64,000 nucleotides of DNA from Candidatus Aenigmatarchaeota archaeon (GCA_030670085.1 DAOVCJ010000001.1:11977-75976); one strand, 5' to 3'; counted from the first letter of the stretch, positions 11,047 through 45,657 are shown. Notes: generated by a model not told the origin, from the sequence alone. Made by a program: numbers and translations.

Positions 11047-11112
11047 AAACCTTTAAATTAAAAGTGAATAACATCACATATATTCCCTTGAGAAGCGTAC
11101 GATGGCTTGGAT

Positions 11113-11122
11113 ATATTTAAAC
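11113..11122 (+). promoter_or_regulatory. TATA box candidate for the tRNA-Arg/tRNA-Pro transcription unit
   Basis: TATATTTAAA is centred about 26 nt upstream of tRNA nt 1 (11143). It is embedded between 9-nt inverted repeats GATGGCTTG/CAAGCCATC (11101-11130). Confidence 0.4.
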
Positions 11123-11142
11123 AAGCCATCTATCGAAAGTGT

Positions 11143-11257: not shown

Positions 11258-11270
11258 TGGAACATTTAAT

Positions 11271-11391
11271 GGGGCTATGGTGTAGCTTGGTCTAGCATTG
11301 GAGCATGGGGACACTTCGAGTGACATAATGCTTCAGACCCCGGTTCAAATGAACCCTTTTAAGAAAGGTTCGGAGATTCCGGGTAGCCCCA
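11271..11391 (+). tRNA. tRNA-Pro(GGG) with two introns (anticodon loop and T-arm)
   Basis: Acceptor GGGGCTA/TAGCCCC. D-stem GTGT/GCAT. Anticodon stem GGAGC/GCTTC. Loop AU-GGG-G plus an 18-nt insert (11311-11328). T-stem CCCGG plus loop TTCAAAT, then a 28-nt insert (about 11351-11378) before CCGGG. Discriminator A. Confidence 0.7.
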
Positions 11392-11411
11392 CCTTATCAG
11401 GGGTGGTTAGA

Positions 11412-12443: not shown

Positions 12444-12474
12444 GAATTTAAATACTACTTATTAATAGCAAATC

Positions 12475-19380: not shown

Positions 19381-19695
19381 TTAACAGTTTGGAGTTGCTC
19401 TGGCTTTACATCCCCCAACCCTATCCTTACAGGCACATTCTCCTACCAAATCAGCACAGCTACACAGTCTAACCTCACCACTGATAGTAACATCTACTTT
19501 GACATTCCATGCAGGTGGCTCACTACCAGTAGCTGCGCAAATACTTACATACTCGGTCATGCATAAGCTTTGCTTGCTTGTCCAGTCAACTATAGGTGTC
19601 ATTCCACCACCAAAAATAGTCAGCACAACCAGCGCAGCAACCAGTATCACAATCGCTGTCACAATAATAACCAGTGTAGTTGAAATACCCTTCAT
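19381..19695 (-). CDS. Small cysteine-rich prepilin-like protein (class III signal peptide), paralog 1
   Basis: MKGISTTLVIIVTAIVILVAALVVLTIFGGG has K-G|I followed by a hydrophobic helix. The C-terminal 65 aa contain 8 Cys. Confidence 0.6.
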   Translation of the reverse strand: MKGISTTLVIIVTAIVILVAALVVLTIFGGGMTPIVDWTSKQSLCMTEYVSICAATGSEPPAWNVKVDVTISGEVRLCSCADLVGECACKDRVGGCKARATPNC

Positions 19696-19744: not shown

Positions 19745-20038
19745 CTAACAACCTTCAAGCTTATTATTTACACACTTACAAGAAGGACTAAGTAACTCGT
19801 AACAGGACATTGGCGTTCTCTCACTACCCACTGTTTTTGTTTGAGCATACCAAGTTGTTGGTAAATTTCCAGTTGAAGTGCATGCTATTGCACCCTCACT
19901 TACACACATACTCTTTGCTCGTGTCAAATCCACAATCGGTGTTATCCCACCACCAAAAATAGTCAGCACAACCAGCGCAGCAACCAGTATCACAATCGCT
20001 GTCACAATAATAACCAGTGTAGTTGAAATACCCTTCAT
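19745..20038 (-). CDS. Small cysteine-rich prepilin-like protein (class III signal peptide), paralog 2
   Basis: It has the same MKGISTT... N-terminus, and the start is set at 20038 by identity with paralog 1, including the 5' UTR. The C-terminus has 6 Cys in a related spacing. Confidence 0.6.
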   Translation of the reverse strand: MKGISTTLVIIVTAIVILVAALVVLTIFGGGITPIVDLTRAKSMCVSEGAIACTSTGNLPTTWYAQTKTVGSERTPMSCYELLSPSCKCVNNKLEGC

Positions 20039-20054
20039 AATTAATCTATGGTTT
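19947..20054. repeat. 108-bp block, copy 2 of 2, identical to 19604-19711
   Basis: See copy 1. Similarity decays sharply on both sides of the block. Confidence 0.9.
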
Positions 20055-20138
20055 TCCACCTTTAAAAAAATGCGCTTTTCTTTCGGGATGCTTGGGAAAG
20101 GTTAATAATCCCGAAATCCAATTAATTAAACGATTGGA

Positions 20139-27724: not shown

Positions 27725-28120
27725 ATGAAAAAAGCTCAGATGTTTATTTTGACAATGGTTTTTCTCGTTGGTCTAGTTTTTGTCATACAGCAGGGGCTCG
27801 TAAACTGGTTCTCATACTCGATGGAGTTTTTTACTGATGTACAGAAGAACGACTATTACCTTTTAAATAATGTTAAGGCAATGACAGAGAAAACCATAGA
27901 AAACTCACAAAGCTGTGACGAAGCTAGAGAGAGTCTTAACGAACTCAGGAGTTTCCTGCAGAGCCATGTATTCAGTGGTTACTTCCTGGAGTTCAGATAC
28001 AGGCTGAATTGCGCTTACTGGAATAATGTTCCCCCCAATCCCAATCCGCTAAACGTGACAATCCATATAACAGGAGAAAATATAGATACCTCTGGAAATT
28101 TTTTCCTCTACAGGTTCTAG
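27725..28120 (+). CDS. Prepilin-like protein 1 of the 27.7-40.7 kb cluster
   Basis: MKKAQMFILTMVFLVGLVFVIQQG has K-A|Q followed by a hydrophobic helix. The body of the protein is unrecognised. Confidence 0.5.
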   Translation: MKKAQMFILTMVFLVGLVFVIQQGLVNWFSYSMEFFTDVQKNDYYLLNNVKAMTEKTIENSQSCDEARESLNELRSFLQSHVFSGYFLEFRYRLNCAYWNNVPPNPNPLNVTIHITGENIDTSGNFFLYRF

Positions 28121-28171
28121 CACCGAAGCAATTAAATAACTATATAAATGCCCTCAGACAAATTAAATAAT

Positions 28172-28735
28172 ATGAGGAAGGGTGCATTCCAGCTGAGTCT
28201 CAGTTTCATAATAGTGGTGGTTTTTGCTGTTATAGTTCTGTCCCTTGCAATAGCATGGATACAGGGGATATTCGAGGTTCTGAATCCGCTTACACACTCG
28301 GTTACGGATGTTGCGAGGCAGGAACTGCTGGACAGGATTGCAAGGAGCGATGCGAGGGTAGGTATTGCCGCGCCGGATGTTACAGCATGGAGGAGAGGAG
28401 AGACAGGCTCCTATTCGGTTGGTGTGAGGAACATTCACACAGACCAGGACAAGACATTCTCCATGAATGTCTATCTTGAGGAGATAGGGGGCGGTCTCCC
28501 AGGCACTGCAGCTCAGTATGAGTCTGAGGTTGGAGAATGGCTGACCTTCTTCAAAAAAACATTTGTGGAAAGTTCAGGATCAGCAACCACTGACATAGTT
28601 ATAAAACCACCAACAGATGCGGAAAGAGGCATATACATGTTCAGGATCATTGTGTGCGATGCAAGTTCTTGTACAAACCTAGGGTCCCCAAACCTTTACG
28701 GTTCCCAACAGTTCACGCTTGAGATAAAGGGATAG
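28172..28735 (+). CDS. Prepilin-like protein 2
   Basis: The start is set at MRKGAFQLSLSFIIVVVFAVIVLSLAIAW (K-G|A). The C-terminal half looks like a beta-sandwich (..TDIVIKPPTDAERGIYMFRIIVCD..). Confidence 0.55.
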   Translation: MRKGAFQLSLSFIIVVVFAVIVLSLAIAWIQGIFEVLNPLTHSVTDVARQELLDRIARSDARVGIAAPDVTAWRRGETGSYSVGVRNIHTDQDKTFSMNVYLEEIGGGLPGTAAQYESEVGEWLTFFKKTFVESSGSATTDIVIKPPTDAERGIYMFRIIVCDASSCTNLGSPNLYGSQQFTLEIKG

Positions 28736-28779
28736 ACCTATTCTTAAATCTTCATACCAAGAATTAAGCAGGTGTTTCT

Positions 28780-28926
28780 ATGGAGGTCTTCAGGTGTGAT
28801 TGCGAAAGGGGATTTGACCTTGTAATGGGCGGAAAAGAGAAAACCTTTGATTGTCCCCGCTGCAAAACCGTGTGGAAGGCAGAGGCTGTGAGGGGATACT
28901 ACAGGCTTCTCAAATGGGTGGAATAG
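28780..28926 (+). CDS. Unlisted 48-aa zinc-ribbon-like micro-ORF
   Basis: MEVFRCDCERGFDLVMGGKEKTFDCPRCKTVWKAEAVRGYYRLLKWVE carries CxC...CxxC. It is co-directional with the cluster and lies in an otherwise empty 290-nt gap. It falls below the ORF-track length cut-off. Confidence 0.35.
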   Translation: MEVFRCDCERGFDLVMGGKEKTFDCPRCKTVWKAEAVRGYYRLLKWVE

Positions 28927-29027
28927 CGAGACCCGCATTGGATAGATTTAACAAATGTGGGAGACGAGAGAAATAAGCAAATCCCTGCAAAAATATAACT
29001 GATTCTAGTTAATTATTAAAGGGTAGA

Positions 29028-29516
29028 ATGAAAGCTATGAGCGTTGGGATGATTTTTGGAATAATATTTGCTATTTTGGTTATGGTGATGATTCTCGTTT
29101 TCGGCTCAGATGTCATTGTTAGTATCTTTTGCATGGGGAACGATGCCCAGACCCAGAAGACCATACAAAACCTGCAGACCTTTGTGGATAACCTTTACCT
29201 CCTTCCATCTGGTTCAGGTGATTACTTTACCCTTAATCTCCCGAGGGATTCAAAAATATGCTTTGTGAATACAACATATCCAGGTCCTGTTTTTTACCCA
29301 GATCCCCTAAAGACCTGGGATCCTGACAAGGTCTACCAGAGGATAATAAAGGAAGAAGGATACAACATATGGTACCACCACTGCAGCGGACAGTCTGGCG
29401 GGAAGATAGATCACCTGTATATTGGCAAGGAAGATACAAAGAACTTCTGCGCAAAACCAGGGATGAAGTTATACCTTGAGAATGTGGGAAGGTGGGTTGC
29501 CATAATAGAGGATTAG
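29028..29516 (+). CDS. Prepilin-like protein 3
   Basis: MKAMSVGMIFGIIFAILVMVMILVFG has K-A|M followed by a hydrophobic helix. Confidence 0.45.
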   Translation: MKAMSVGMIFGIIFAILVMVMILVFGSDVIVSIFCMGNDAQTQKTIQNLQTFVDNLYLLPSGSGDYFTLNLPRDSKICFVNTTYPGPVFYPDPLKTWDPDKVYQRIIKEEGYNIWYHHCSGQSGGKIDHLYIGKEDTKNFCAKPGMKLYLENVGRWVAIIED

Positions 29517-29517
29517 T

Positions 29518-30633
29518 ATGATCAGCCTATACAGAATGTTTCAGATGATATTCGGAATTATTGTCTCGGTGTTTATTCTATACTTTCTGATACAGTACGC
29601 ATCGAATTACGCAGGATTCCAGAAGGATGTCCAGAAGGTAACCATTATCAAGAACCTGAAAATAACAGCAGAGAGTGTATACACGTATGGGAACCCTGTT
29701 GATTTTCCTGACACGTCTAGGTATGATTTTTCCTCATGTTATATGATTATTAACAAACCCGAACCGCCAAACATAAAATGCGATTTCGGGGAGGTAGGTT
29801 CTGTCCTGATACCAATGCTGTTATCAGCAGATGGTGAGGTTGTGGTTGACAGGGCTGACCTCAACTTTGGGTGGCATGTCATGCACTGGATTGAGGTGAT
29901 GCCGGAGAGTGTAATACTATTTACACCCATGGATTCCTCAGAAGTGACCTGGAACCTCATGAAAAACCTTACTGACGTCCTTCCCTCAACAGAGAACCTC
30001 GAAAACAATATAACCTATGATTTCTGTGATGGCAATACTTTGACTTATGCGTGTGGGGGACCGTGCGAGAAGTTTAGTTTTATGACTGTTCTGGATTCCG
30101 TCCGAGACTCAGCTTCAAGATGCACGAGGTCACTTTCGAAAAAATACAGGCTTATAACAATATCCAACAATTGTGGGCCTGGTTTTTCTAATTACGGGGT
30201 TTGTGTCAAGCCATCACAGGATGGGGTTGGTGTTGCGTATCTGGCGGGTTCTGGGGAAACCTATGTCTACAAGGACCCTTTGGATATAATAGCCCTTGTT
30301 ATTGGTGGGAGTGAGAAGGATGTTCTTGGGAAGACGTTTGGGGAGAAGCTCTACGATTACAAGAACGAGGTCTGGGGAGAGAGACTTTCCCTTGCAGCAA
30401 AGATAATGAAGCAAAGAATGCTCCTGGTTTCTAGCAGGTACCAGTATTTGGGTGAGAATCTGGAATGCATACCAATATATGCAAACCTTGCCGGTATGCT
30501 TGCTTCCATAACTGATATGGCAAAGGGAAATTACAAGAACGAGGCGGTTATGAGGAATCTTGCAACCAGGTTAAAGGAAGCGGAATCCCTGTACCAGGAC
30601 CTGGTTGATTTGGGATGTGAATATTATGTATAG
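29518..30633 (+). CDS. N-terminally membrane-anchored protein of unknown family (10 Cys)
   Basis: The YRMFQMIFGIIVSVFILYFLIQYA anchor has no clear K-G/A cleavage motif. The gene starts 1 nt after the upstream stop. Confidence 0.5.
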   Translation: MISLYRMFQMIFGIIVSVFILYFLIQYASNYAGFQKDVQKVTIIKNLKITAESVYTYGNPVDFPDTSRYDFSSCYMIINKPEPPNIKCDFGEVGSVLIPMLLSADGEVVVDRADLNFGWHVMHWIEVMPESVILFTPMDSSEVTWNLMKNLTDVLPSTENLENNITYDFCDGNTLTYACGGPCEKFSFMTVLDSVRDSASRCTRSLSKKYRLITISNNCGPGFSNYGVCVKPSQDGVGVAYLAGSGETYVYKDPLDIIALVIGGSEKDVLGKTFGEKLYDYKNEVWGERLSLAAKIMKQRMLLVSSRYQYLGENLECIPIYANLAGMLASITDMAKGNYKNEAVMRNLATRLKEAESLYQDLVDLGCEYYV

Positions 30634-31114
30634 AAAAAAAAGAGGACAGGTTAGCATAATGGAATATATTCTGCTAACCTTTTTCATACTCCTGGTTATC
30701 CTCGCCCTGCTCTTCTTCCTGAGCTGGTGGCAGTTTTCTCAACTCGGCATGCAGGAGCACAAACTTAAAATGGATAGAGTCCTCTTCCTTGCTAGGTACG
30801 TATCCAATTCACCGTATTTTGTAAAGGAAAACTCCATCTTTGACGATTCAAAGCTTACCGCGGCAGCAAGCCTCGGGAGCGGGATATGCAGGGATTTTGA
30901 GGCTGTATTTGGATATAACTGGTTTATCAAGTTCAGGGCTTTTGATGGTGATACGGAAACCCCGTGTACGTGGATGGGATACCCTGATTGCAATTCATGG
31001 GAGTTCTGTACGAAAAACCAGAAGAACATCTCCAGAATTTTACCAGTGAACATCTACAGAAAGATTTCAGAGGATAACGGTATAGGAATAATGGAGGTAG
31101 GGATATACATATGA
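30626..31114 (+). CDS. Prepilin-like protein 4
   Basis: MYRKKRGQVSIMEYILLTFFILLVILALLFF has R-G|Q. The start overlaps the upstream gene by 8 nt. Confidence 0.55.
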   Translation: MYRKKRGQVSIMEYILLTFFILLVILALLFFLSWWQFSQLGMQEHKLKMDRVLFLARYVSNSPYFVKENSIFDDSKLTAAASLGSGICRDFEAVFGYNWFIKFRAFDGDTETPCTWMGYPDCNSWEFCTKNQKNISRILPVNIYRKISEDNGIGIMEVGIYI

Positions 31115-31644
31115 AAATGAAAAAGAAGGCCCAAACATCAATGATACTGCTGGTAATAGTAATAATAATCTTTGCAGCCCTTGGTATTTTCCTGTTCTCC
31201 CTTGCTCAGACCGTTTCACCAAAGGACTACATGAATATGTACACCCACAATCTTCTCCTCTCCATCCTGAGAGCTGACACAGGATCCCATGATCCAGAAT
31301 GCAAATACGTATCCGACCTGATATCCTGCTCATTCTTCATGCCATCCACATATCAGTGTTCGGGATTGGATATGACTTGCCAGGAGCTTGCACAATCAAG
31401 AATAGACTATTACATGTCCAAGTATGCAGACCTGCAGAAAAGTTTCAGATACCTCCTTACAGTAAATCCAAAGGGGTTCCTGGCAAAGACACCGGAAGGG
31501 GAGGCCCTCAGAATCGAGTTTGGTGATTCCAGCCTCAAGGATGAAAAGGTTCAGAAATGGTCTGCAAACGAGCTCATACAGAGGGTTTCTGGCATGACAG
31601 AATATTATCTAACGGTTAACCTGCTCATATCTGTCAGGGAATAA
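31111..31644 (+). CDS. Prepilin-like protein 5
   Basis: MKMKKKAQTSMILLVIVIIIFAALGIFLF has K-A|Q. An ATGA-type overlap joins it to the upstream gene. Confidence 0.55.
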   Translation: MKMKKKAQTSMILLVIVIIIFAALGIFLFSLAQTVSPKDYMNMYTHNLLLSILRADTGSHDPECKYVSDLISCSFFMPSTYQCSGLDMTCQELAQSRIDYYMSKYADLQKSFRYLLTVNPKGFLAKTPEGEALRIEFGDSSLKDEKVQKWSANELIQRVSGMTEYYLTVNLLISVRE

Positions 31645-31678
31645 TATTATATAAATTAGTAACTGTAAATTATATTAT

Positions 31679-33523
31679 ATGGAAAGGAAGGGGCAGGTTG
31701 AGTTTATCGTTATTCTTGGGCTTCTGGTTGTTATCGCTGTGGTCATTTTCTATGCGTACCAGTCTGGTTTGCTTACTCCAGTTGTTTCCCCTGATGTTTC
31801 CCTCGCAGAGGACTCTGTGAGAAACCTAATAAGGGCCGGTGCCTATCAAACCCTCACAAACATGAGCCTTTACGGGGGATACCTGAATGCAGATTCCTTT
31901 CAGATGGGTTCCCTGACCTTTAACGGGAAGGAGGTTCCCTACTGGCAGAAAAACGGACAGATAACATACCCAGACTTGCATATGAACTTCAAGGAGGGTA
32001 TCAAGAGCTATCTTATCCAGAACAAGGACGGGTTTGCAAACGCATACACCGAGGAGTATGGTAAGGAGATTGTGATAGGTGAACCATCTGTTTCAGCAAA
32101 CTTTATGAACGACAAGATAGACCTGCTTGTGAACATGCCAACCACCCTTGACGGCAACGCAGTCCCACAGCCATACACAATATCCATCTCCACAAGATTC
32201 GAAGAGATACATGATTTCTCAACCGGTTTCCTAACCTTCTCAAGCACAAACAGGCCCCTGGAATACTTCACACTTGCCTCAATGCTCATGTCACCGATCA
32301 AGCAGGGCGTGCATGAGGTTCCGATATTTTTGTTCTTGACAGATTGTGGGGAGATGGTTTACAGGAGCTGGGGTGATGTAAAACCCGGGGCTGAATATGC
32401 GATAAAGACAACACTCGCTCACACGTATATGCCCGGGAAATATCCACAGAACGTTTTGCGCACAACAAGCCATCCGAAGTATTCCATACCTCCTATAAAC
32501 GGGAAAGAGTATGAGAATATAGATATAACCTTCCACCTACCTGATGATTTTGAGCTGACACAGAACAATCTACAGTTCGACCCAGATCCCATATTCCTGC
32601 TGGCAGAACCGGTTCTAATGACAAGCTCCTGCCAGTCAGAACCCGTCTTTGTAAAATACTTCATTCTGTACCCAACTGTTGTTAGGGTTAAGGATACCCT
32701 TACCGGGAATTCCTTCCACTTCGCAACAGAGGTCTTCATATTCAACAACACCCCTGGGGACTGGGCAGATATGGCAGGGTACATACCAAGCGAACTGAAA
32801 GCAATATGCGATAATCCGCTTTGCTCAGCCAGTCTCACTGTTCGTGACAGCAGCGGTAACCCCATCCCCTATGCATCAGTAAGCTTCATGAGATGTAATC
32901 TGGGAGCGACGAATTCTCAGGGAAGATTTGTGGGAACTGCTCCATGCGGTGTGGGTCCACTTGAGGTTTATAAGAATGGCTATGGACTGTACAGCGAGAT
33001 GAAGGCAGCGGATATCGAGGATTTACAGGTAACCCTGTTCAAGACACCGGTTATAAACCTGTATTTCCACGAAGTAATAGTCCAGAACCTTTCAATGAAC
33101 AAGCAATACATGATCAGGTCTGATGGAATAGACTGGATAAATGCAAGGCATCCTGAGATTGTTTACATGAACATGTTTTCATACACCATTGTCCAGTCTA
33201 ACCAGCTGATATTCAAGAACAAGATGGGAAGGCTGAGTTACATGCCACCGGATGATTATGTTATAGGAGCCAACATGATTAGCGATACAACTCTGGTGGG
33301 TGCATTCATTCTGAACTACACTATAACAGAAAACATGGATGGCAGGGATCTGCACATATATCTGCCATACATACCCGAGATTGCGAATGTAGAGAGTGAT
33401 GAAGAACTTGGAGCAGTCATGGTGGAGCTTACAAGCCTGCTCAAGAAATGTGGTCTTGGTCCGATAAGAGATACGCCGGTTGAGAACTTTGGAGGATGCA
33501 TAGTGGGATACAATGAACTTTAA
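31679..33523 (+). CDS. Large (614 aa) prepilin-like protein 6, candidate tip/adhesin pilin
   Basis: MERKGQVEFIVILGLLVVIAVVIFYAY has K-G|Q-V-E. The body of about 580 aa is unrecognised. Confidence 0.6.
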   Translation: MERKGQVEFIVILGLLVVIAVVIFYAYQSGLLTPVVSPDVSLAEDSVRNLIRAGAYQTLTNMSLYGGYLNADSFQMGSLTFNGKEVPYWQKNGQITYPDLHMNFKEGIKSYLIQNKDGFANAYTEEYGKEIVIGEPSVSANFMNDKIDLLVNMPTTLDGNAVPQPYTISISTRFEEIHDFSTGFLTFSSTNRPLEYFTLASMLMSPIKQGVHEVPIFLFLTDCGEMVYRSWGDVKPGAEYAIKTTLAHTYMPGKYPQNVLRTTSHPKYSIPPINGKEYENIDITFHLPDDFELTQNNLQFDPDPIFLLAEPVLMTSSCQSEPVFVKYFILYPTVVRVKDTLTGNSFHFATEVFIFNNTPGDWADMAGYIPSELKAICDNPLCSASLTVRDSSGNPIPYASVSFMRCNLGATNSQGRFVGTAPCGVGPLEVYKNGYGLYSEMKAADIEDLQVTLFKTPVINLYFHEVIVQNLSMNKQYMIRSDGIDWINARHPEIVYMNMFSYTIVQSNQLIFKNKMGRLSYMPPDDYVIGANMISDTTLVGAFILNYTITENMDGRDLHIYLPYIPEIANVESDEELGAVMVELTSLLKKCGLGPIRDTPVENFGGCIVGYNEL

Positions 33524-36500
33524 GATTGTGACACTGGAGATATTTGCAATTTTGATATCTGCATTAATATTCAGTATGCCCCTGGTCGCAGCAACGGACA
33601 TAAACATATTCTTCAACGGTGTGAAGAAAACAGAAGTAGAATACAAGACAGAGAATTTAATCAACAAGCAGATAGAGTTCATACACGAGGCCAAAGACAT
33701 ACTTTGGAAAAACGTTAAGGTAGCGGTTAAGGTAAACTCCGCGAGCCTGGCAAAGGAGATAAAGAAAATCTATCTCTACAAGTGCAAGAAGCTTTCTCCA
33801 GCGAACTGCATACAGTCTGAGCCACAGGTTTTTGAAAACTTCATTGATGTGGAGCTGTTATGGACTGATATCTCTGAAAGGGAGGGAGTATATGCATATC
33901 CACAGGTTGCAAACCTTCTGATTGTGATAAAGCTTGAGGACCTCAGCGGAACTGTAAGCTGGATTGGTCTGTGGAGCCAGATAAGGAGAAGCGCTTACAA
34001 CACATTCACAGAGTACGACCACGAGCTGAGCGAAATCGATCTGCATGCAAGCTCCCTTGACATAGTGAATCCCATAAAGATGTACATAGAAAACTACGGA
34101 ATGATACCCTTCAACTGGTTAACAAAAGCAGTGTTCAAAACCGCAAACACACTGTATGCGTTGGGAGCTGATGAAAGCGAAATAGAATCGTCCCCGCCGA
34201 GATTTTTGACAGCAACTCCACCCACAAACGAGATAGATACAATAAACAAGGATTTCTACCTCATCTTCTCCAACACAAGCTCGGGTATAGCTAATCCACT
34301 GACACTCAACCTGAACCCAACCTTTAGCTGCGGTGATGGGGCATGCGAGGCAGACCTTGGGGAAACCCCAGGAAGCTGCTGTTATGATTGTCCCTGCGGA
34401 GGAGGGCAGTACTGCGATGTTGACCCAACTGACCCAACAACCGGTGAATGCAAGGATTTGAGCCAAGTATCCCTTCAGGTTGTATCTACCTCATCTCCAC
34501 AGATCACTGACTGCTCCGGAACGTTTGATGTTAACATAACACTGAAGATAAACAACCCACCAAGTTCCCTACATTCAGACATCCCATCGGTTTTCAAGCT
34601 GGACGAAACTGTTTACTCAACAAGTTGTTATGGAGGACCACCAGAGTACTGGTGTGTGTTAACACTGAATTCCGATTATGTTGAGTGCGGTCAGGGGAGC
34701 TATAACATAGGCCCGAATGACGTGACAACAAGCATAATCTACACCGATGGCCCGAATGATATGAGCCTGACCCTGAACACAAGCTTCTCTCCAATAATAG
34801 TCAACTATGATTGCTCCTGTGATGATGGGTTCTACTGTGATATCGGGACAGATACATGCAAATCAGAAGACGCAATAACCCTGGGAATAACCTCACTTAC
34901 ATCATATCTGGATAATTACAATGAAGGAGACACAATAGATCTAACAGCCAAGATATTCAACCCACCAACTGGTCTGACCGTTATCTCAACCTCAGCGACC
35001 CTTAACCTGACAGGGGGGCAGGTTTCCCCTGGTTCACCAACCTGCACGGGACCGAGTGCTGATTATGAATACAGTTGCTCCATACCGTTCCAGATAGTTG
35101 GCTACAGCAGGAGCAATTCATACACCTTTGACCCGAACACCCTTATATTCACAATAACCTACAAAGACGGAACAATTGACAAGACAAAGGTTCTGGAAAC
35201 AAATTTCGGTCCGGTGAGCATTCCATCCCAGTACTGTGGGGACGGTGTGTGCAACATGGGGGAAACTCAGGAGTCATGTTGCATTGACTGTGATTGCTCA
35301 GAAGCGGAGGACTACTGTGATCCTGTAAGGGGTTGTGAATCAACAACAGGAGTAACTGTTAGCGTAGATTCTGCTACTCCAACAGAATTCACTGACTGCA
35401 GGCAACCGCACCTGGTAAACATAACGTTAAGGGTAGTCAACCCCCCAAGCACACTGACACTTGATCATTATTTCCATATAACAGGCAACTTACCGAGCGG
35501 GTGGGGCTTGCAGTGTGATGACTCTGGTTACGGAGGCGTTTACTACTGCCATCTAACCATACCTTCAATAGAGGGATGCTCTCTGCCTTACTATGAGATT
35601 GGAAACAATGAGCTTAATGTTTCAATAAGCTTTGATGACGGGGCACCAACATCCACGTTCTATTCAAGAATAACAAAGCAAATGAGCGCTCAATTCTCCA
35701 ACATAAAGGTTATTCCAATCTATGAATGCGGTGATGGGGTGTGCGAATCCAACCTTGGAGAGGGACCTGGAAACTGCTGCATAGATTGTCCATGCAGTTC
35801 AGGGCAGTACTGTGATGTTACTCCATCCAACACCGATGGCGTGTGCAGGTCAAAGGACGCGATAAGCCTGGTTATAGATTCCCCGAAGCAGACGGTGAGA
35901 TTCACGAGCTGTGAGCTACCCCACAACATAAACATAAAGGCCCACGTTAAGAACCAACCCTCAAATATGAAACCGGAATACTATTACGGAACCCTTAACG
36001 GAAGCAGTGCAGAACTCATGCACTGTGATGTGGAAGATTCCTACGGAGCAGCAAACTTCAGCTTTAACTGCACCATGACCGTGTCCCCAGAGTTCAAATG
36101 CGAAAAAGACAAAACCTACACGTACAGAGACAATTCCTTCTCCATATTCATAAGCTACATGAACGGGGACATAACAGAGACCAAAAGCCTTTCAGGAAAA
36201 CTGCCAAACGTTGTGGTAACCCAGACCATAAGATCAATGTACGAAATCATGCAGGAGGCGGAGAAAAAGATGAATGAGAGTCTGCAGAAGGTGAAGGAAA
36301 CAGCCGAGGATATGTTTGAGGAATACAAGAAATGCGTGGACAGGGTGAAGAAGTTAGCACAAATAATGTATATTGTAACCGTAGCCAGTCTGATGTTCGG
36401 AACCATAAAGTTCACAGGACTTGGTGATAAGATTGGCGGGATATTTAAAGGCAAATGGGATGGGCGTCAGTTCGGTGACTTCATATCACTTGTAAGCATG

Positions 36501-37589
36501 GCTGGTTCATCACTCATGCAGATGCTGACAAATCTGTGCAACCTTATAGCAAGCACTTACCAGATAGATCTGACAGTCCAAAGGATTCAGATGGATATGA
36601 TAAAGATGCAGATGTGCATGGAGATTAACCAACACATGCTGGATATAGGACAGTGCAGAGGAAGGGAAGAATCCTGCTTCAATGCGCTTATCAATTGCGT
36701 GAGCTTTGGTAACGTTAATTCCTGGATGAACGCCCTTAACAGCATAATGCAACAGGTACGGCAAACTGCACAGAATATGGGTAGTGCTTCCAACAGGTTC
36801 TGGTTTGGGTATGGGGGTTCAAGAGGAGGGTTTGGTACTCTCTTTGGCGCTGGCGGTCAATCCAGTTTCCATGTTGTGTGCAATCAGGGCGGAGGTGATA
36901 CATCTACTACAGGACCCTGCTGCTCCAAATACCTTCATGGAACCACCTGCATGGATAGCAAGATTAAGGTAATGAGACAGGGTGGGTACTGTAACTACCC
37001 TGTTGTTGAGATGGTGAAGCCGGATAATTCAAGAACCAGGATCTATGTAAACCAGTACTACGTCATAGAACCCACAATTATCTCTTCAGGTGCGGTTTCA
37101 GGGGATGAAGTTGAAGTAAAATATGAATTCTACTGTTTTGATTCTTCAGAAAATTATGTACCATTCAATCCAACGAAGAACGAATATTCAAAGGAAGGAG
37201 AAATACAACATAGATATGCGAAAGCCAACCCTGATTGTAAATGCCCGGGAATAAGCGGAACTACAACAACACAAACAACTGAAACCGAAGAGAACCACCT
37301 CGCAGATATAGTCGGTGAAATTGGCGCTTCAACTGAGGGGAAATATGTCAAATTGACAGCCAAGATAAAGGACGTTGATGGCGACACAGTTCACTACACA
37401 TGGTGGTATGTTATTGATGATGCTTTCTTTGTAGGACAAATGTCCGGTTGCGAAGATGGGTGTGATATAGTGGGAGAATACACATATCCAGAATCAGGAA
37501 CCTACACAGTAAAACTTGAGGTCAGTGATGATAGTTCATACCCACCAGAAAGAACCGTTAGTAGAACGAAAACAGTGACAGTTAGTTAA
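33513..37589 (+). CDS. Giant (1358 aa) modular cysteine-rich surface protein with an internal hydrophobic hairpin and a C-terminal PKD-like domain
   Basis: It has a Sec-type signal (…IFSMPLVAATD). Four tandem units follow, each a CGDGxC...CCxDCxC...YCD knot plus a beta-rich module. Two hydrophobic segments lie at aa 948-968 and 990-1014. The C-terminus HYTWWY...GEYTYPESGTYTVKLEVSDD is PKD-like. The gene overlaps the upstream gene by 11 nt. Confidence 0.75.
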   Translation: MNFKIVTLEIFAILISALIFSMPLVAATDINIFFNGVKKTEVEYKTENLINKQIEFIHEAKDILWKNVKVAVKVNSASLAKEIKKIYLYKCKKLSPANCIQSEPQVFENFIDVELLWTDISEREGVYAYPQVANLLIVIKLEDLSGTVSWIGLWSQIRRSAYNTFTEYDHELSEIDLHASSLDIVNPIKMYIENYGMIPFNWLTKAVFKTANTLYALGADESEIESSPPRFLTATPPTNEIDTINKDFYLIFSNTSSGIANPLTLNLNPTFSCGDGACEADLGETPGSCCYDCPCGGGQYCDVDPTDPTTGECKDLSQVSLQVVSTSSPQITDCSGTFDVNITLKINNPPSSLHSDIPSVFKLDETVYSTSCYGGPPEYWCVLTLNSDYVECGQGSYNIGPNDVTTSIIYTDGPNDMSLTLNTSFSPIIVNYDCSCDDGFYCDIGTDTCKSEDAITLGITSLTSYLDNYNEGDTIDLTAKIFNPPTGLTVISTSATLNLTGGQVSPGSPTCTGPSADYEYSCSIPFQIVGYSRSNSYTFDPNTLIFTITYKDGTIDKTKVLETNFGPVSIPSQYCGDGVCNMGETQESCCIDCDCSEAEDYCDPVRGCESTTGVTVSVDSATPTEFTDCRQPHLVNITLRVVNPPSTLTLDHYFHITGNLPSGWGLQCDDSGYGGVYYCHLTIPSIEGCSLPYYEIGNNELNVSISFDDGAPTSTFYSRITKQMSAQFSNIKVIPIYECGDGVCESNLGEGPGNCCIDCPCSSGQYCDVTPSNTDGVCRSKDAISLVIDSPKQTVRFTSCELPHNINIKAHVKNQPSNMKPEYYYGTLNGSSAELMHCDVEDSYGAANFSFNCTMTVSPEFKCEKDKTYTYRDNSFSIFISYMNGDITETKSLSGKLPNVVVTQTIRSMYEIMQEAEKKMNESLQKVKETAEDMFEEYKKCVDRVKKLAQIMYIVTVASLMFGTIKFTGLGDKIGGIFKGKWDGRQFGDFISLVSMAGSSLMQMLTNLCNLIASTYQIDLTVQRIQMDMIKMQMCMEINQHMLDIGQCRGREESCFNALINCVSFGNVNSWMNALNSIMQQVRQTAQNMGSASNRFWFGYGGSRGGFGTLFGAGGQSSFHVVCNQGGGDTSTTGPCCSKYLHGTTCMDSKIKVMRQGGYCNYPVVEMVKPDNSRTRIYVNQYYVIEPTIISSGAVSGDEVEVKYEFYCFDSSENYVPFNPTKNEYSKEGEIQHRYAKANPDCKCPGISGTTTTQTTETEENHLADIVGEIGASTEGKYVKLTAKIKDVDGDTVHYTWWYVIDDAFFVGQMSGCEDGCDIVGEYTYPESGTYTVKLEVSDDSSYPPERTVSRTKTVTVS
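34329..36212 (+). repeat. Four tandem protein-level repeat units (about 140-165 aa each) inside the giant ORF
   Basis: The Cys-knot heads lie at nt 34329-34451, 34812-34859 (degenerate), 35235-35336 and 35727-35846. Each is followed by a module containing an N-P-P-S/T-like motif (INNPPSSL, IFNPPTGL, VVNPPSTL, VKNQPSNM). Confidence 0.7.
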
Positions 37590-37650
37590 ACTTTCCCATT
37601 TTAGTTTTCTTTAAGATTGATTTTTATTGAAGCAAGGGAAATAAGATATT

Positions 37651-39093
37651 ATGAAGAGGGTACTGGTCTTTGCTTTTCTATTTTGCATGGTTTTGCTTGT
37701 TCGGTCTGGTCAGGGTTATCGATTGACAGACAACCTTTATTTTGCGATCCCGAACGATACCATAGGGTGCATAGATGTTATCCTACCTGGTGATTCGGGA
37801 TTTATGGGAATGGGGGAGTATGAGTATATACTGACATGCTCGAGCAACTGGAGCGATCTGACAGAGCAGATTATAAGGACCGATGAGAACAACACGGTCA
37901 GAATTCCCATATGCTTCTCGGGTTTTGGAAGAGCAGATGGGGACTGTTCACCACCCTTTACGATAGGGATTTCTTCTGCAAACCTGGGTATTAAGAATGA
38001 GTGGAATGGCGGGGTTTGCATATCAAAATACCCTGATTTCGATATTGTAGATGAAACTGCAGAGGATGAAGATGATGTCAGGGATATTCTGGACGGGAAC
38101 TTTGATCTCTTTGACATTGGGTTTTCCCTCGAGAGGATGTACTCAGAGCCTGATGAGAGCGTGATATACTCCTTGTTGGTTGAATCCTATGCGTCCCTTA
38201 CAATAGATTTAAATGCGAAAACAGGCCTTTCTGTCACCCCAACAAGCGAAACTGTCTACACGTCTTCCTTTTATCCATTTCACACAATCTACTTCACTGT
38301 ACAGGCCCCAAGCCAGAGTGGAGAATACGCATTTGATGTTGAGGCAAGGGTAAGGAACTGTGAGGGTATTTTCTGCAGTAAAACTGCAAGGGGAACCCTG
38401 GTTGTTAACGAGAGCTTGCCTGAGATCGGCTTTTCTGCTTATCTTTTCCCGAAGAGCATCAATGTTAAGAACCTTGAACCCGTCCTTTACACACTAACAA
38501 TCCAGAACCACGGAAAGGCAAAGATATTCTCAATAAGGATAGACATAGACCCGGTTACCACAACGGATTTTGAGTGGAGGGATGATGTGATTGTCTTTGA
38601 GGATAGCAAGGAAACCATAAACTTCACGGTTACCCCGGATAAGGTCTCATCCCTTTATGAAATAGGGGTTACTGTTATATACGAAGGATTGGAAAAGAAG
38701 GCCTCTGCATCGCTATCAACCAATGAGATGCTGACCGATGCAATGAGGGACGCGGATTCTATAAAGAATTCAAACTCTAACCTTGCAGGGGATGTCAATT
38801 CCGCTCTTGATGATTGGTATAACAGCTATAAGAACTCTGATTATGGAGCTGACCTGGACGATTACACGACACTGAAGGACAATTTTGCGGATTTGAGAAA
38901 CCAGACAGACGGCGCAGGACCACCCGGACCCTACATACCAGGAGAACCGGGAACAGACGGGGAAGATCAAGAGGGTATGGGATGGTTATGGATTGTACTG
39001 ATAATAATAATCATAGTTGTTGTAGTGATAATCTTGGTCATCTTTTTCAAAAAATCCAAAAAAACCGAGGAAACCGAGGAAGAATATTTTTAG
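37651..39093 (+). CDS. Secreted, C-terminally TM-anchored surface protein (480 aa) with an acidic tail ...EETEEEYF
   Basis: The signal peptide is MKRVLVFAFLFCMVLLVRSGQG. CARDB-like beta-sandwich segments are present (LEPVLYTLTIQNHGKAKIFSIRIDI). The TM segment is WLWIVLIIIIIVVVVIILVIFF, followed by KKSKKTEETEEEYF. Confidence 0.7.
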   Translation: MKRVLVFAFLFCMVLLVRSGQGYRLTDNLYFAIPNDTIGCIDVILPGDSGFMGMGEYEYILTCSSNWSDLTEQIIRTDENNTVRIPICFSGFGRADGDCSPPFTIGISSANLGIKNEWNGGVCISKYPDFDIVDETAEDEDDVRDILDGNFDLFDIGFSLERMYSEPDESVIYSLLVESYASLTIDLNAKTGLSVTPTSETVYTSSFYPFHTIYFTVQAPSQSGEYAFDVEARVRNCEGIFCSKTARGTLVVNESLPEIGFSAYLFPKSINVKNLEPVLYTLTIQNHGKAKIFSIRIDIDPVTTTDFEWRDDVIVFEDSKETINFTVTPDKVSSLYEIGVTVIYEGLEKKASASLSTNEMLTDAMRDADSIKNSNSNLAGDVNSALDDWYNSYKNSDYGADLDDYTTLKDNFADLRNQTDGAGPPGPYIPGEPGTDGEDQEGMGWLWIVLIIIIIVVVVIILVIFFKKSKKTEETEEEYF

Positions 39094-40742
39094 TAGAATT
39101 CCTCTTCAAACTCCTCTGTACCTTCCTCAAACTCCTCTTCCAGACCACCCTTCTTCCTGTATTTCTTCAAGTAGAGCCACACTCCAACCGCGGCAACAAC
39201 TATTATAACAATTATTATCAGAAGGGTGAAATCGAATTCAGGAACCTCTGGCTCTACACAATAATTGTATGAACATACCTCACCCTCAATACAATCCTCA
39301 TTATCACAGCATTCACCTGTTATGCAAGTCTCATCGCAGCATACACCATCCGTACAATACGTTCCGTTTAACTGACCCTCACATTCGTTCACCTCAACCT
39401 CGCAGCAGATACCATCCACACCATCCTCTCTGCATGTGCCTGTCCAGGTCTCGTCTGTGGGGCATGAGGTATAATCAGGGTAACAAGTCCCTGTTGTGCA
39501 TGGGATGTCTGGAGCAGGTCCTTCAGATTTCACACATATGTAATTCGTACACTCCTCATCAGAAGCACAATCACCCCCATCACAACAGTTTGATTTTTCT
39601 ATGCAAATCTCGTCGCAGCATATACCTCCGTAGCAGTAGCTCATATCAGATTTCCCTTCACATGTAATCATGGTTGTTCCTGACTCATTCTTGACACTGA
39701 TTGTCATATCAATTGGTATGTAACCTATCAGGCTGTTGTTTGATTTTAATTGGGCCTGGATTTTTATCTCCATGGAGTTTACCACATTCTCCAGAACAAC
39801 ACTGAAGAACATGGAGTCAAGCGGGCCAAGTGTGTTGTTGTCCAATTGTATGTCAAGGAAATCATTCACATCCACGGGTTCTGTAGGGGGTATGCGAACA
39901 GTCAGGGAGGTCAGGGTATTGTTCCTCAGGTTGGTTATCCTGTAATTGGATTTTTCGTATTTCTGGTTTTTGTTTATCAATATGTTGAGGCTTACGATAT
40001 CAACATCAACGAATCCTATCTCTCCGTTACCATCTCCCCCTGCTCCCAGACTCATGTCAATCCTCGCTACCGACCCCCCGTAGTCAGCACCGCTTGTAGG
40101 TGCACTGAAAGCGATGTAGTATTGCCCGATATCAAGGGTTATGTTGTCCCTGTACGCACCACTAGGGGCATCGTAAACCAGCCTACCATCCTTGTTCGGA
40201 ACCAGGCTCAGGTTGTTTGTGTAGTATGTTTCGTAGGAAATCCTAGTCACGATGTCTGGTACAGGCCAAACGTTTATGTAAGCGATTTTGTTGTCAATGT
40301 CTGTGGTGATCTTTGAGGTTAGCACTATACTCCCTACATACACATCCAGGATTTCGCCTCCAGTATTCCAGGAAGAATCCGTTGTGTTGACCTCGAATAT
40401 ATGCGGATCAACGCCGATATTCGATAACCTGAAAGGATTGGGTCCGCACGTGCTTTTTGCATCAGTATCAGAAAAGTAGCACATCCACTTATCCCCAATT
40501 TTTGGTATCTGCCCGGCTACCGGCTCCATCATTGTTCCGTATGTAAGCCAAGTCACCCTGACAGATTCACTAACTCCTGGGTCAACCACAAGAAGGAAAC
40601 TCGAGTTCACGGATATTTTTTCGGGTATGAACGTAACATCTGGTGTGGGAAGCTGTGCGGATGCGAACGGAACTAGTGATACTATCATTAAAAACAGGAA
40701 CGTCAGGTATACGAGTTTCATTCGCCTTGACAAATTTTTCAT
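39090..40742 (-). CDS. Secreted, C-terminally TM-anchored Cys-rich surface protein (550 aa) with an acidic tail ...EEFEEEFY
   Basis: The signal peptide is ...LVPFASAQ. A duplicated CC-rich module lies at aa 361-496. The TM segment is LLIIIVIIVVAAVGVWLYL, followed by KKYRKKGGLEEEFEEGTEEFEEEFY. Its stop overlaps the stop of the convergent gene at 37651-39093. Confidence 0.7.
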   Translation of the reverse strand: MKNLSRRMKLVYLTFLFLMIVSLVPFASAQLPTPDVTFIPEKISVNSSFLLVVDPGVSESVRVTWLTYGTMMEPVAGQIPKIGDKWMCYFSDTDAKSTCGPNPFRLSNIGVDPHIFEVNTTDSSWNTGGEILDVYVGSIVLTSKITTDIDNKIAYINVWPVPDIVTRISYETYYTNNLSLVPNKDGRLVYDAPSGAYRDNITLDIGQYYIAFSAPTSGADYGGSVARIDMSLGAGGDGNGEIGFVDVDIVSLNILINKNQKYEKSNYRITNLRNNTLTSLTVRIPPTEPVDVNDFLDIQLDNNTLGPLDSMFFSVVLENVVNSMEIKIQAQLKSNNSLIGYIPIDMTISVKNESGTTMITCEGKSDMSYCYGGICCDEICIEKSNCCDGGDCASDEECTNYICVKSEGPAPDIPCTTGTCYPDYTSCPTDETWTGTCREDGVDGICCEVEVNECEGQLNGTYCTDGVCCDETCITGECCDNEDCIEGEVCSYNYCVEPEVPEFDFTLLIIIVIIVVAAVGVWLYLKKYRKKGGLEEEFEEGTEEFEEEFY

Positions 40743-43821: not shown

Positions 43822-45657
43822 ATGAAAAAAATGAAAAGTGAAAAGAAGAAGAAAGAGGAGTTTTCAAAGGCCAGGGTCTTGGTACCTGATACCTCGATCC
43901 TGATTCACGGAAAACTTTCGGAATTGATAAAAGAGGGCAAGATAAGCCCGAAAAAGATAGTCATACCTAGAGCTGTTCTTGATGAACTGCAGGCCCAGGC
44001 CAGCAGGGGAAGAGAGGTTGGTTTTGATGGTCTTGAGGAGATAAAGAAGATAAGGAAAGTCGGCAAGGACAAGAAGATAGCCCTGGAGTTCACTGGTGAC
44101 AGGCCAACCTTTGAAGAGATCCAGCTGGCGAAGAAGGGAAGGATAGATGCCCTGATAAGGGACGCTGCATCAAAGGCAGGCGCTACTCTCATAACGTCGG
44201 ATTACGTTCAGGCCCTTGTAGGGGAAGCCGAGGACGTTTCTGTTGATTATGTGGAAAAGGACATCCTGAAAAAGCCACTGGAACTTGAGAGCTTATTCTC
44301 GAAAGATGTTCAGTCGGTCCACCTCAAGGCAGGTGTCACGCCTTACGTGAAGAGGGGCAAACCAGGGAATGTGGAGCTTGTCAAACTGAAAAGAAAACCA
44401 TTTGATGACAAGGAGTTGGAATCCATGATAGATCAGATTGTTTCAAAGGCAAGAAAGGACGAGGACTCGTTCATAGAGATAGGAAAGCGTGGTGCCCTGG
44501 TGATACAGCTGGGAAACTACAGAATATGCATAACAAGACCACCCTTTTCTGACAAGACAGAAATCACTGCAGTAAGACCTATAGTTAAACTAACCCTAGA
44601 AGACTACAAGATGCACAAGGAACTGGAGAAGAACATAGTTTCAGGTTACCATGGCATCATGATAGCAGGACCCCCGGGTTCTGGTAAATCAACCTTTGCT
44701 GCTTCAATAGCGGATTTCCTTGTTAAAAAGAACAAGATAGTCAAGACCTTTGAGCAGCCCAGAGATTTGCAAGTAGGCCCTGAGGTTACACAGTATGCTC
44801 CATTGGAAGGTGACTGGGAAAAGACAGCAGAGCTGCTTTTGCTGGTAAGACCTGACTACACAATATTCGATGAGGTCAGGAAAACCAGGGACTTCAGAGT
44901 GTTCGGTGACATGAGGCTTGCTGGCGTAGGCATGATTGGCGTAACCCACTCAACCGATACTGTGTCAGCGATACAGAGGTTCATAGGAAGGCTCGATCTT
45001 GGGGTTATACCACACGTGATAGACAAAGTGATATACATAAAGTCTGGAAAGATAGAGAAGGTTTACAATCTAAACCTTACAGTCAAAGTGCCGACAGGAA
45101 TGAAGGAGGCAGATCTCGCAAGACCCGTGGTTGAGGTCAGGAACTTCGATACCAAGGACTTGGAGTATGAGATATACACCTACGGAGAGGAGACTGTTAT
45201 AATGCCTGTGAAGAAGGAGAAGTCTCCACTAAAGAATCTCGCCAGGGAGAGGGTCTTGCAGGTGCTTAGAAAATGGGACCCAGACGCAGAGATAGAAATC
45301 CAAAACAACAGAATCATAGCAAGGGTCAAGGGCTCTGTTATCCCAAAGTTGATTGGAAAAAAGGGAAAGAACATAGAAGAACTGGAAAGGAAACTAGGCA
45401 TGGGAATATCTGTCGAACCCAAGGAGGGTTCTCTGAAGCAGGATGTATACTGGGATTACGATGAGACAGGAGCATACATAAACCTGAGGCTTGAGCCCGG
45501 ACTAGTCGGGGTTCAGGTTGATATCTACAGGGACAGGGACTACCTGTTCTCAGCCCATGTAGGCAAGGGTGGTATCATAAGGGTAAGGAAAACATCTAAT
45601 CTTGGAAGAAAGCTTCTGCAGGCGATTCTGGGAAAGAAGCTCAGGATCCTGATGTAA
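43822..45657 (+). CDS. PIN-domain / P-loop ATPase / KH-domain protein (PilT-family ATPase, PINA-like)
   Basis: The N-terminal PIN domain is VLVPDTSILIHG. Walker A is IAGPPGSGKSTFA. The C-terminal KH-like motif is KLIGKKGKNIEELERKLGM. Confidence 0.8.
   Translation: MKKMKSEKKKKEEFSKARVLVPDTSILIHGKLSELIKEGKISPKKIVIPRAVLDELQAQASRGREVGFDGLEEIKKIRKVGKDKKIALEFTGDRPTFEEIQLAKKGRIDALIRDAASKAGATLITSDYVQALVGEAEDVSVDYVEKDILKKPLELESLFSKDVQSVHLKAGVTPYVKRGKPGNVELVKLKRKPFDDKELESMIDQIVSKARKDEDSFIEIGKRGALVIQLGNYRICITRPPFSDKTEITAVRPIVKLTLEDYKMHKELEKNIVSGYHGIMIAGPPGSGKSTFAASIADFLVKKNKIVKTFEQPRDLQVGPEVTQYAPLEGDWEKTAELLLLVRPDYTIFDEVRKTRDFRVFGDMRLAGVGMIGVTHSTDTVSAIQRFIGRLDLGVIPHVIDKVIYIKSGKIEKVYNLNLTVKVPTGMKEADLARPVVEVRNFDTKDLEYEIYTYGEETVIMPVKKEKSPLKNLARERVLQVLRKWDPDAEIEIQNNRIIARVKGSVIPKLIGKKGKNIEELERKLGMGISVEPKEGSLKQDVYWDYDETGAYINLRLEPGLVGVQVDIYRDRDYLFSAHVGKGGIIRVRKTSNLGRKLLQAILGKKLRILM

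Follow-up and report, generated by a model that had tools for sequence, protein, structure and literature searches.

A conserved, unannotated gene block for a candidate cell-surface assembly in Candidatus Aenigmatarchaeota

The DNA studied here is a stretch of 64,000 nucleotides (nt) from a metagenome-assembled genome (MAG) of Candidatus Aenigmatarchaeota (GCA_030670085.1, DAOVCJ010000001.1:11977-75976), hereafter the window, and all positions are counted over its whole length. Between 27725 and 40742 the window holds a cluster of ten large genes, g1 to g10, and one micro-open reading frame (micro-ORF). We found this feature to be real, strongly conserved and unannotated, and its best explanation is a conserved, vertically inherited cell-surface assembly of the Aenigmatarchaeota. 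To judge from the sequence, the block is probably a cell-contact structure. In its most specific form, we tentatively propose a pilin-like scaffold with a distant type IV pilus (T4P)-type motor, coupled to membrane-anchored spikes of Cys-knot and Ig-like modules for cell contact, and we give this proposal a little less than an even chance. The cluster had first been noticed in a note made from the sequence alone (the original prediction), which had assumed a small-genome archaeon; coherently, the organism is a DPANN archaeon with a small genome. Exact-sequence look-ups of the ten large proteins located eight of them in public data, and the copies that bear a name are hypothetical proteins from MAGs of Candidatus Aenigmarchaeota/Aenigmatarchaeota.

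ORF calling identified nine co-directional large genes, the micro-ORF of 48 amino acids (aa) and one convergent gene, that is 11 genes including the micro-ORF, where the original prediction had counted 12 (Table 1). The ORFs, overlaps, N-termini and convergent stops that it quoted were all located in the ORF calls and intergenic sequences. Genes overlap at g4/g5 (30626/30633), g5/g6 (31111/31114) and g7/g8 (33513/33523), and the stops of g9 (TAG, 39091-93) and g10 (TTA, reverse TAA, 39090-92) overlap as well. The g2 gene could start at 28148 (195 aa) or, likelier, at 28172 (187 aa). TATA-like boxes were spotted by eye upstream of g7, g9 and g10, that of g10 being TTTTTATATA, ~30 nt 5' of the start. 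A scan of 27.4-41.2 kb for bacterial promoters and terminators, with a tool that has no archaeal promoter coverage, gave counts equal to the shuffled expectation.

Related loci were gathered through relatives of g7 and a genome scan, and were mapped with phmmer and hidden Markov models (HMMs). The order AspRS-g1-g2-g3-g4-g5-g6-g7-g8-g9-(g10 convergent)-tRNA-binding protein-Hef-CTP synthase was found in ~15 Aenigmatarchaeota contigs, and the same block is held by the near-identical contigs L001-L003. The comparison of gene order in related genomes, proposed in the original prediction, gave strong conservation across these ~15 loci. Identity across contigs is 30-48% for the cluster proteins and mostly 55-70% for Hef, CTP synthase and the tRNA-binding protein in the flanks: the cluster proteins change more rapidly than these housekeeping neighbours yet stay full-length, as expected for surface proteins. 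An origin from an integrated element was rejected, as no relative of the cluster was found in viral contigs and the housekeeping flanks are conserved. Among the relatives, source labels include 'Nanoarchaeota archaeon' and 'Micrarchaeota archaeon', MAG labels being unreliable; every locus from the genome scan was titled Aenigmatarchaeota, 'archaeon' or 'uncultured archaeon'.

The block splits into modules, with g3-g10 in L023, g7-g10 in L022, and g7 and g8 alone in the distant loci L005 and L024, where they are the sole pair kept. Wherever a locus has enough sequence, the g7 and g8 genes are neighbours, and their stop and start usually overlap. In L025 and L026, a tandem pair of g7 paralogues, one of which has a C-terminal VWA domain, precedes a large protein that matches g8 in its N-terminal ~290 residues only. 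The genes beside g7 and g8 in L024 (13827-18386, minus strand) include ones for unrelated proteins that have class-III-like N-termini (MKKG↓FLLSLDTMIAV... and ...RYG↓QLYSLIAIL...; the arrow marks the putative processing site), so the association of the g7-g8 pair with pilin-like genes recurs with different families. Gene calls include the micro-ORF in L001 and L002; it is kept otherwise only in L021 (E 3.5e-12) and was not found in the g2-g3 gap of 13 other loci; it is specific to the window's own subclade and lies outside the conserved core. In L007 (CP070801.1, a complete Aenigmatarchaeota genome), only g6-g9 stand together and g9 contains a masked run of N; the locus tags suggest that g3-g5 (JSW41_04185-04195) lie apart from a g5 fragment to g8 (JSW41_02775-02790), a split that could reflect either rearrangement or an artefact of assembly.

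For g7, a word index gave 69 relatives, nearly all of ~610 aa, and its profile gave 307 matches at E<=1e-30 against 1.84 billion cluster representatives; among the at least 150 profile matches listed, most are near-full-length and some are shorter fragments. It is thus a large family, and one without a Pfam or NCBIfam model. Some members add a C-terminal VWA domain and, by their sequence, these appear to be adhesin-type modular pilin-like proteins. Similarly, in some g1 orthologues the C-terminus is extended by Cys-rich stretches of 336 and 645 aa. In L021, a Cys-rich protein of 1329 aa, encoded in divergent orientation and faintly matching DUF4215, stands in the place of g1.

The pilin-like character of the first genes is based on their N-termini. 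Five products (g1, g2, g5, g6 and g7) show the class-III layout, with a basic leader, K/R at -2, G/A at -1 and a helix, and in their orthologues the [KR]-[GA]-Q/A motif directly abuts a hydrophobic helix of ~20 residues. Conservation of these motifs among orthologues that are only 30-48% identical supports the proposed scaffold. The original prediction had listed six class-III products; the five above stand, and g3 was removed from the set because its orthologues begin with M-N/D-V-G-M-V-F, lack the basic leader and do not conserve the 'MKA' leader of the window. The uncleaved-looking anchor that it ascribed to a seventh product belongs to g4, and this anchor is conserved in the orthologue alignment. 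The helices of g3 and g4 (29028-30633) are leaderless and related to each other (...F-G-I-I-x-S/T...; cross-HMM E ~2e-6), and represent a second conserved anchor type.

A scan of all window ORFs for the class-III pattern gave 12 matches, six of them inside the block. Outside it, four are pilin-like genes (2278, 7488, 19381 and 19745) and two are 67-aa ORFs (49882 and 55163) that are otherwise unsupported. In the motif, G/A after K/R and then an invariant Q would fit a cleavage site. This is the class-III pattern as reportedly described by Szabo et al. (2007), and a Q at +1 is said to mark EppA-type substrates. N-termini of the G↓Q type with a nearby Glu match Epd/EppA substrates.

Several observations weigh against a pilin-like scaffold. 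Both g3 and g4 are without the class-III motif and layout. The Pfam pilin models were missed by g5 (PF04021 Class_IIIsignal, E 0.08, 13.3 bits against a cut-off of 23.7) and by g6 (PF07790 Pilin_N, E 0.011, 17.0 bits against 25.2), and in scans of 12, 13 and 63 family members, 0 passed the PF04021 or PF07790 cut-offs. In the AlphaFold2 (AF2) model of g7, the one pilin-like product that the modelling covered (predicted local distance difference test, pLDDT, 89; 63-sequence alignment), helix 5-28 is followed by a proline-rich linker of lower confidence (pLDDT 64-68) and then by the body helix 38-64; the model shows no unbroken pilin alpha-1 helix. A prepilin peptidase was not found in the 64-kb window, and none of the related loci had a T4P ATPase within 10 kb of the cluster. 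Because the Pfam pilin models were not reached and no peptidase was found in the window, prepilin processing is a step that we only infer.

The same observations are coherent with a membrane complex that works without pilus machinery, in which the N-termini would be ordinary uncleaved signal anchors, their conserved residues serving for helix-helix packing with g8-g10. The Pfam scores, the missing peptidase, the related loci without an adjacent ATPase and the linker after the g7 helix all agree with this explanation, as does the leaderless anchor helix common to g3 and g4. The invariant Q in a context that fits a cleavage site is less easily accounted for, and so is the presence of the same pattern on the pilin-like genes beside the ATPase of the window, which supports the pilin-like scaffold instead. 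On balance, we consider this machinery-free complex with uncleaved anchors quite unlikely.

As regards this ATPase, Pfam placed a T4P-type motor at 3.4-7.0 kb, where the original prediction had put it, and no such machinery within the cluster. The E-values of its three genes (3389-7005) are 1.8e-17, 2.6e-14 and 2.3e-32. It lies 20.7 kb upstream of the cluster and is the sole such motor in the window. One of the two adjacent pilin-like genes, a minor pilin at 7038-7460, has an N-terminus (LSG↓QSLIFE) that resembles the g5 motif. The original prediction had stressed the absence of assembly machinery from the cluster, but this is not unusual in itself, as archaeal pilin loci are often separate from ATPase/TadC loci (PMC4858521; Sivabalasarma & Albers 2026 preprint). 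Surveys of archaeal T4P describe such separate loci and also uncharacterised pilins in DPANN (PMC4858521; PMC6393860), and in DPANN the type IV filament (TFF) 'system 1' combines a single ATPase with two platform genes, numerous pilins and pilin loci that stand alone (Sivabalasarma & Albers 2026 preprint). Since separate pilin loci are already known in archaea, the block's lack of its own motor is ordinary; its gene content is not.

The second half of the cluster encodes the large surface proteins. The original prediction had described three Cys-rich proteins with Sec signals: g8 (60 Cys, 4.4%) and g10 (28 Cys, 5.1%) are indeed Cys-rich, and g9, with 8 Cys (1.7%), is not. The AF2 model of g8 residues 1-1100 (pLDDT 84, 38 sequences) consists of a signal peptide, a beta-rich N-domain (28-266), four repeats of a Cys-knot plus an Ig-like sandwich (270-903) and long helices (909-967, 984-1045 and 1065-1098), with a hydrophobic tip at the turn of the first two. 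At the same aligned position, the 19-residue Kyte-Doolittle mean of this tip is >=1.6 in 30/38 orthologues and >=2.0 in 16/38, with a maximum of 3.04, and we consider the tip to be probably embedded in a membrane. A weaker G/A/S-rich segment lies ~40 residues past the hydrophobic one, and a terminal anchor is absent. The helical hairpin is followed by a Cys/Gly-rich region and then by the PKD domain; because the region past the hairpin carries Cys-rich, PKD, CARDB, Big_13 or HINT domains, all of extracytoplasmic type, an N-out/C-out hairpin in the cell's own membrane is favoured.

The g9 protein has a signal peptide, an Ig-like ectodomain and a C-terminal transmembrane helix, and terminates in a short acidic tail (...EEEYF). 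In g10, a signal peptide, Ig-like domains and Cys-rich repeats are followed by a transmembrane helix, a KK-rich stop-transfer and a long acidic tail (...EEEFY). A Lys-rich stop-transfer stretch is common to both proteins, and the acidic and aromatic tail ending is conserved in all g10 (11 orthologues) and in most g9 orthologues. As g8, g9 and g10 look anchored in the cell's own membrane, a location at the tip of a classical pilus is weakened, and the tip complex presenting giant adhesins put forward in the original prediction fits poorly. A pseudopilus or a bindosome-like base is a better fit than a pilus-tip adhesin. The confident AF2 models of g7 and g8, with the Ig-like and Cys-knot arrays typical of surface proteins, support the scaffold-and-spike proposal.

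Large surface proteins in a phylum-wide, vertically inherited locus amid housekeeping genes could also belong to a cell-envelope or S-layer module, with g8 as the lattice (SlaA-like), g9 and g10 as stalks (SlaB-like), the pilin-like termini as mere anchors and the small N-anchored proteins as envelope organisers. The combination of a large protein that looks free of transmembrane helices with proteins having a signal peptide, Ig domains and a C-terminal transmembrane helix mirrors the S-layer candidates of Nanobdella (bioRxiv 10.1101/2023.10.27.564410); the TATA-like boxes 5' of g7, g9 and g10 are in line with it, and SlaB (8qox_B) and the S-layer protein 7ptp_A appear among the generic Ig-array matches of Foldseek, although with TM-scores of ~0.1. 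However, no S-layer family was matched in Pfam or NCBIfam, g8 has its own conserved hydrophobic hairpin, and a set of five conserved [KR][GA]Q leaders is not known from S-layers. The density of N-glycosylation sequons, at 0.7-1.8 per 100 aa, would be low for archaeal S-layer proteins. We regard this S-layer module, small-protein organisers included, as unlikely.

The C-terminal part of g8 deserves a separate consideration. The first ~1100-1245 residues are collinear among orthologues and the C-terminus differs, carrying PT-HINT, CARDB, Big_13 or nothing detectable where the window has PKD. In two close orthologues (P0263 and P0265, 61-62% identity; locus L021:10001-14659) it holds a Pretoxin-HINT domain (PF07591, E 6e-19 and 5e-14), followed in P0263 by ~190 further residues. 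This variability would suit a contact-dependent effector of the polymorphic-toxin type, with g8 as the delivery stalk and a C-terminal cassette released by HINT. Yet the g8 of the window has PKD only, without HINT, most orthologues have no detectable HINT, the P0263 tail is a Cys-rich module for which a toxin-family match was not found, and a candidate immunity gene was not found either, g9 being always next downstream. Such an effector is very improbable.

A different possibility is that the g7-g8 core forms a DPANN-specific cell-to-cell contact machine. In such a machine, a pilin-like scaffold would hold g8 against the host, and the conserved g8 hairpin, with its flanking helices of ~60 residues, would enter the host membrane much as alpha-helical translocators or pore-formers do. 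The variable C-terminus, with HINT in some lineages, would then be a host-specific or released module, and g8 a candidate part of the DPANN-host cytoplasmic bridge. We consider this contact machine, with its host insertion and released module, to be improbable.

Family searches agree with the original prediction, in which the mature parts of the pilin-like products matched no recognised family: profile libraries, PDB profiles and Foldseek assigned none of the proteins to a pilus, S-layer or bindosome family. Above the curated cut-offs of Pfam, NCBIfam and PHROGs, the only match is PKD at the C-terminus of g8 (PF00801, residues 1275-1341, E 1.3e-5, 25.5 bits against a cut-off of 23.5). By profile and structure searches together, the isolated domains recognised across the products are Ig-like, CarboxypepD_reg and PKD only. 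Below threshold, Pfam gave Class_IIIsignal for g5, Pilin_N for g6 and CarboxypepD_reg for g7, and the body of g2 showed only weak Ig-like hints (DUF4625, E 0.02). The g7 model combines the N-terminal helix with an alpha/beta domain and several beta-sandwiches, one of which is CarboxypepD_reg-like; Foldseek against the PDB returned only generic Ig-array matches (TM-scores ~0.1), and a borderline PDB-profile match of its helix to a 70-aa fimbrial protein (E 0.1) was treated as noise. The g4 family had 28 matches including the window's own, the few named ones being hypothetical proteins of Aenigmatarchaeota/Aenigmarchaeota, and a profile search found no PDB relative of g4. Searching six family alignments against PDB sequences gave noise only (e.g., AI-designed TIM barrels), and PHROGs, NCBIfam and the BFVD viral fold library gave nothing past generic Ig arrays.

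Among the products themselves, hhalign related the N-termini of g5 and g6 (82%) and identified one domain in common between g9 and g10 (92%). Paralogy of the globular parts of g1-g7 was rejected, the similarity being confined to the N-terminal helices (g5-g6 and g3-g4). A PEF-CTERM sorting signal was considered for g10, which has VPEF before the transmembrane helix, and was discarded (E 0.29, with a 25-residue acidic tail following).

Among the closest known systems is the archaeal TFF 'system 1', the Epd-type pili of Methanococcus maripaludis and relatives, which like the window has one ATPase and two platform genes, together with many heterogeneous class-III-type proteins, some of them encoded away from the motor (PMC4858521; Sivabalasarma & Albers 2026 preprint). 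The G↓Q-type N-termini with a nearby Glu are a further likeness. Unlike this system, g1-g7 match neither the Pfam pilin models nor any annotated family, three large membrane-anchored proteins are added, a dedicated peptidase is not seen, and the cluster is a fixed block of 10 large genes between housekeeping genes. In the Sulfolobus bindosome, whose substrate-binding proteins with class-III signals are assembled by BasEF, class-III proteins are thought to be membrane-proximal and not part of a long pilus, with the motor encoded apart, as we propose here; the cluster differs in that substrate-binding-protein domains (searched in g1-g7) and ABC transporter genes were not found with Pfam and NCBIfam.

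Gene organisation also recalls FimU-PilVWX plus PilY1 and GspH-K, with a row of dissimilar pilin-like genes ending in the largest and then a giant Sec-signal protein, and with the large pilin-like g7 gene tightly coupled to the giant g8. This parallel, drawn in the original prediction, is limited to gene organisation: no similarity to GspH-K, FimU-PilVWX or PilY1 (beta-propeller, vWA) was found in Pfam, NCBIfam, PDB profiles or Foldseek, and the g8 hairpin and the g9/g10 transmembrane anchors suggest proteins that are probably held in the membrane and do not ride on a tip. The PilB of Streptococcus sanguinis, with its vWA module (PMC8179133), resembles g7 in joining a pilin-like N-terminus to a large multi-domain body, and the VWA additions of some g7-family members and the Cys-rich additions of some g1 orthologues are of the same kind. 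Differently from PilB, the ~580-aa body of g7 is a family of its own without a PDB relative, and its processing and incorporation into a filament are putative. In Foldseek, g8 comes closest to the ectodomain of plexin A1 (PSI/IPT arrays; E 3.7e-14), whose PSI plus IPT alternation is mirrored by the Cys-knot and Ig-like sandwich pairs (x4) of residues 270-903. Because the TM-score is ~0.09, the likeness is architectural and does not indicate homology; moreover, g8 has no sema domain. The MoxR/vWA/DUF4350 'secretion system' (Makarova et al. 2019, 2015) was rejected, as AAA+ MoxR and vWA proteins are absent here; the same papers report a DPANN cluster, NEQ255, beside the 'S-layer-like' arCOG02487.

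The remaining features of the window are mostly apart from the cluster (Table 1). The two tandem 104-aa genes are candidate major pilins of the T4P system, and stand apart from both motor and cluster. Directly downstream of the platform genes sits a 217-aa protein with six predicted transmembrane segments (2702-3355, minus strand), which was rejected as a prepilin peptidase since neither a Pfam match, Peptidase_A24 included, nor a GxGD motif is present; judged by eye, the pattern GDS...G.RYG..K in it is more of the dolichol or CTP-dependent kinase type. The plus-strand gene at 43822-45657 encodes 611 aa with a PIN domain and a weak match to a T2SSE-type ATPase (E 1e-5), and has no platform partner; this second secretion-ATPase-like gene is probably unrelated to pili. 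Close together on the plus strand (8235-13584) are genes for a RimK-like ATP-grasp protein (8235-9152), a DUF1611 P-loop protein (11298-12443) and a MATCAP-family protein (12475-13584), the last family being tyrosine carboxypeptidase-like. That a C-terminal peptide-modifying system is linked with the g9 and g10 tails, acidic and aromatic at their ends, is pure speculation. The window also contains a thermosome, an intron-containing tRNA and further archaeal housekeeping genes. The tRNA (11143-11257, plus strand; Rfam, 58.5 bits) is presumably intron-bearing because it spans 115 nt; ARAGORN found 0 tRNAs in the whole window.

Table 1. Features of the cluster and of the pilus-related loci in the window (arrow, putative processing site).
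Feature	Position	Strand	Description	Conserved N-terminus in orthologues
g1	27725-28120	+	131 aa, pilin-like, MKKA↓QMF	K-[AG]-Q-M-F, invariant in 10 orthologues
g2	28172-28735	+	187 aa, pilin-like, MRKG↓AFQLSLSF	[KR]-[GA]-A-[IF]-[QE]-[LM]-S-L-G-F (orthologue alignment)
Micro-ORF	28780-28926	+	48 aa, CxC...CPxC, zinc-ribbon-like	
g3	29028-29516	+	162 aa, hydrophobic N-terminal anchor, conserved class-III leader absent	
g4	29518-30633	+	371 aa, N-terminally anchored, extracytoplasmic, conserved Cys residues	
g5	30626-31114	+	162 aa, pilin-like, KRG↓QVSIMEY; alternative start 30605 (169 aa)	K-G-Q-x-x-I-M-E-Y, E and Y invariant
g6	31111-31644	+	177 aa, pilin-like, KKKA↓QTSM	K-[AG]-Q-[TS]-S (orthologue alignment)
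g7	31679-33523	+	614 aa, pilin-like, gene overlaps g8 start	[KR]-G-Q-x-E; G5, Q6 and E8 (nearly) invariant in 63 sequences
g8	33513-37589	+	1358 aa, Cys-rich surface protein, Sec-type signal	
g8 hydrophobic hairpin tip	36345-36536	+	residues ~945-1008, probably membrane-embedded	
PKD domain of g8	37335-37535	+	Pfam PF00801, variable C-terminal part	
g9	37651-39093	+	480 aa, type I membrane protein	
g10	39090-40742	-	550 aa, type I membrane protein, convergent with g9	
Pilin-like gene	2278-2697		pattern scan	
T2SSF platform gene 1	3389-4318	-	Pfam	
T2SSF platform gene 2	4311-5183	-	Pfam	
T2SSE ATPase with PilB3_C domain	5218-7005	-	Pfam	
Two pilin-like genes beside ATPase	7038-8096	-	140 and 202 aa, weak DUF7266/DUF7289, G↓Q-type N-termini	
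Two tandem 104-aa pilin genes	19381-19695, 19745-20059	-	MKG↓ISTTLVIIV, near-identical, Cys-rich C-terminal halves	

Taken as a working model, the pilin-like scaffold would be built as follows. A prepilin peptidase of PibD/EppA type, encoded outside the window, would process the leaders of g1, g2, g5, g6 and g7, and the motor at 3.4-7.0 kb (ATPase plus two platform proteins) would handle these five proteins. Together with the N-anchored companions g3 and g4, they may form a short pilus or a pseudopilus-like scaffold. The g7 gene appears to be translationally coupled to g8, and a g7-g8 complex is most likely, probably through the conserved N-terminal domain of g8. The g8, g9 and g10 proteins would be large surface spikes made of Cys-knot and Ig-like modules, kept in the archaeon's own membrane by the hydrophobic helical hairpin of g8 and by the C-terminal transmembrane helices of g9 and g10, whose acidic tails would be cytoplasmic. 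The part that faces the target and diversifies is likely to be the variable C-terminal region of g8, and the assembly may serve contact with, or adhesion to, other cells or surfaces.

A literature search found no published description of the cluster. Pilin loci away from their motor are not new in archaea, and the known kind to which the cluster belongs, as a variant, is that of archaeal type-IV-pilin-like sets with associated adhesin-type proteins. We know of no cultured member of the Aenigmatarchaeota. DPANN archaea need physical contact with a host, and the proteins for this contact are largely unknown. Against this background, the locus offers ten large genes (g1-g10), kept as one fixed set throughout the phylum and all of unannotated families, with g7-g8 as the core pair; a role in host attachment, however, is one that we purely infer. 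The [KR][GA]Q leaders, the hydrophobic hairpin of g8 and the acidic-aromatic tails of g9 and g10 are features that can be searched, tagged and imaged. If the pilin-like reading is true, the archaeal type IV filament repertoire would gain a scaffold with giant membrane-anchored spikes coupled to it; should this reading fail, the locus would still be a strong candidate for the envelope of the Aenigmatarchaeota.

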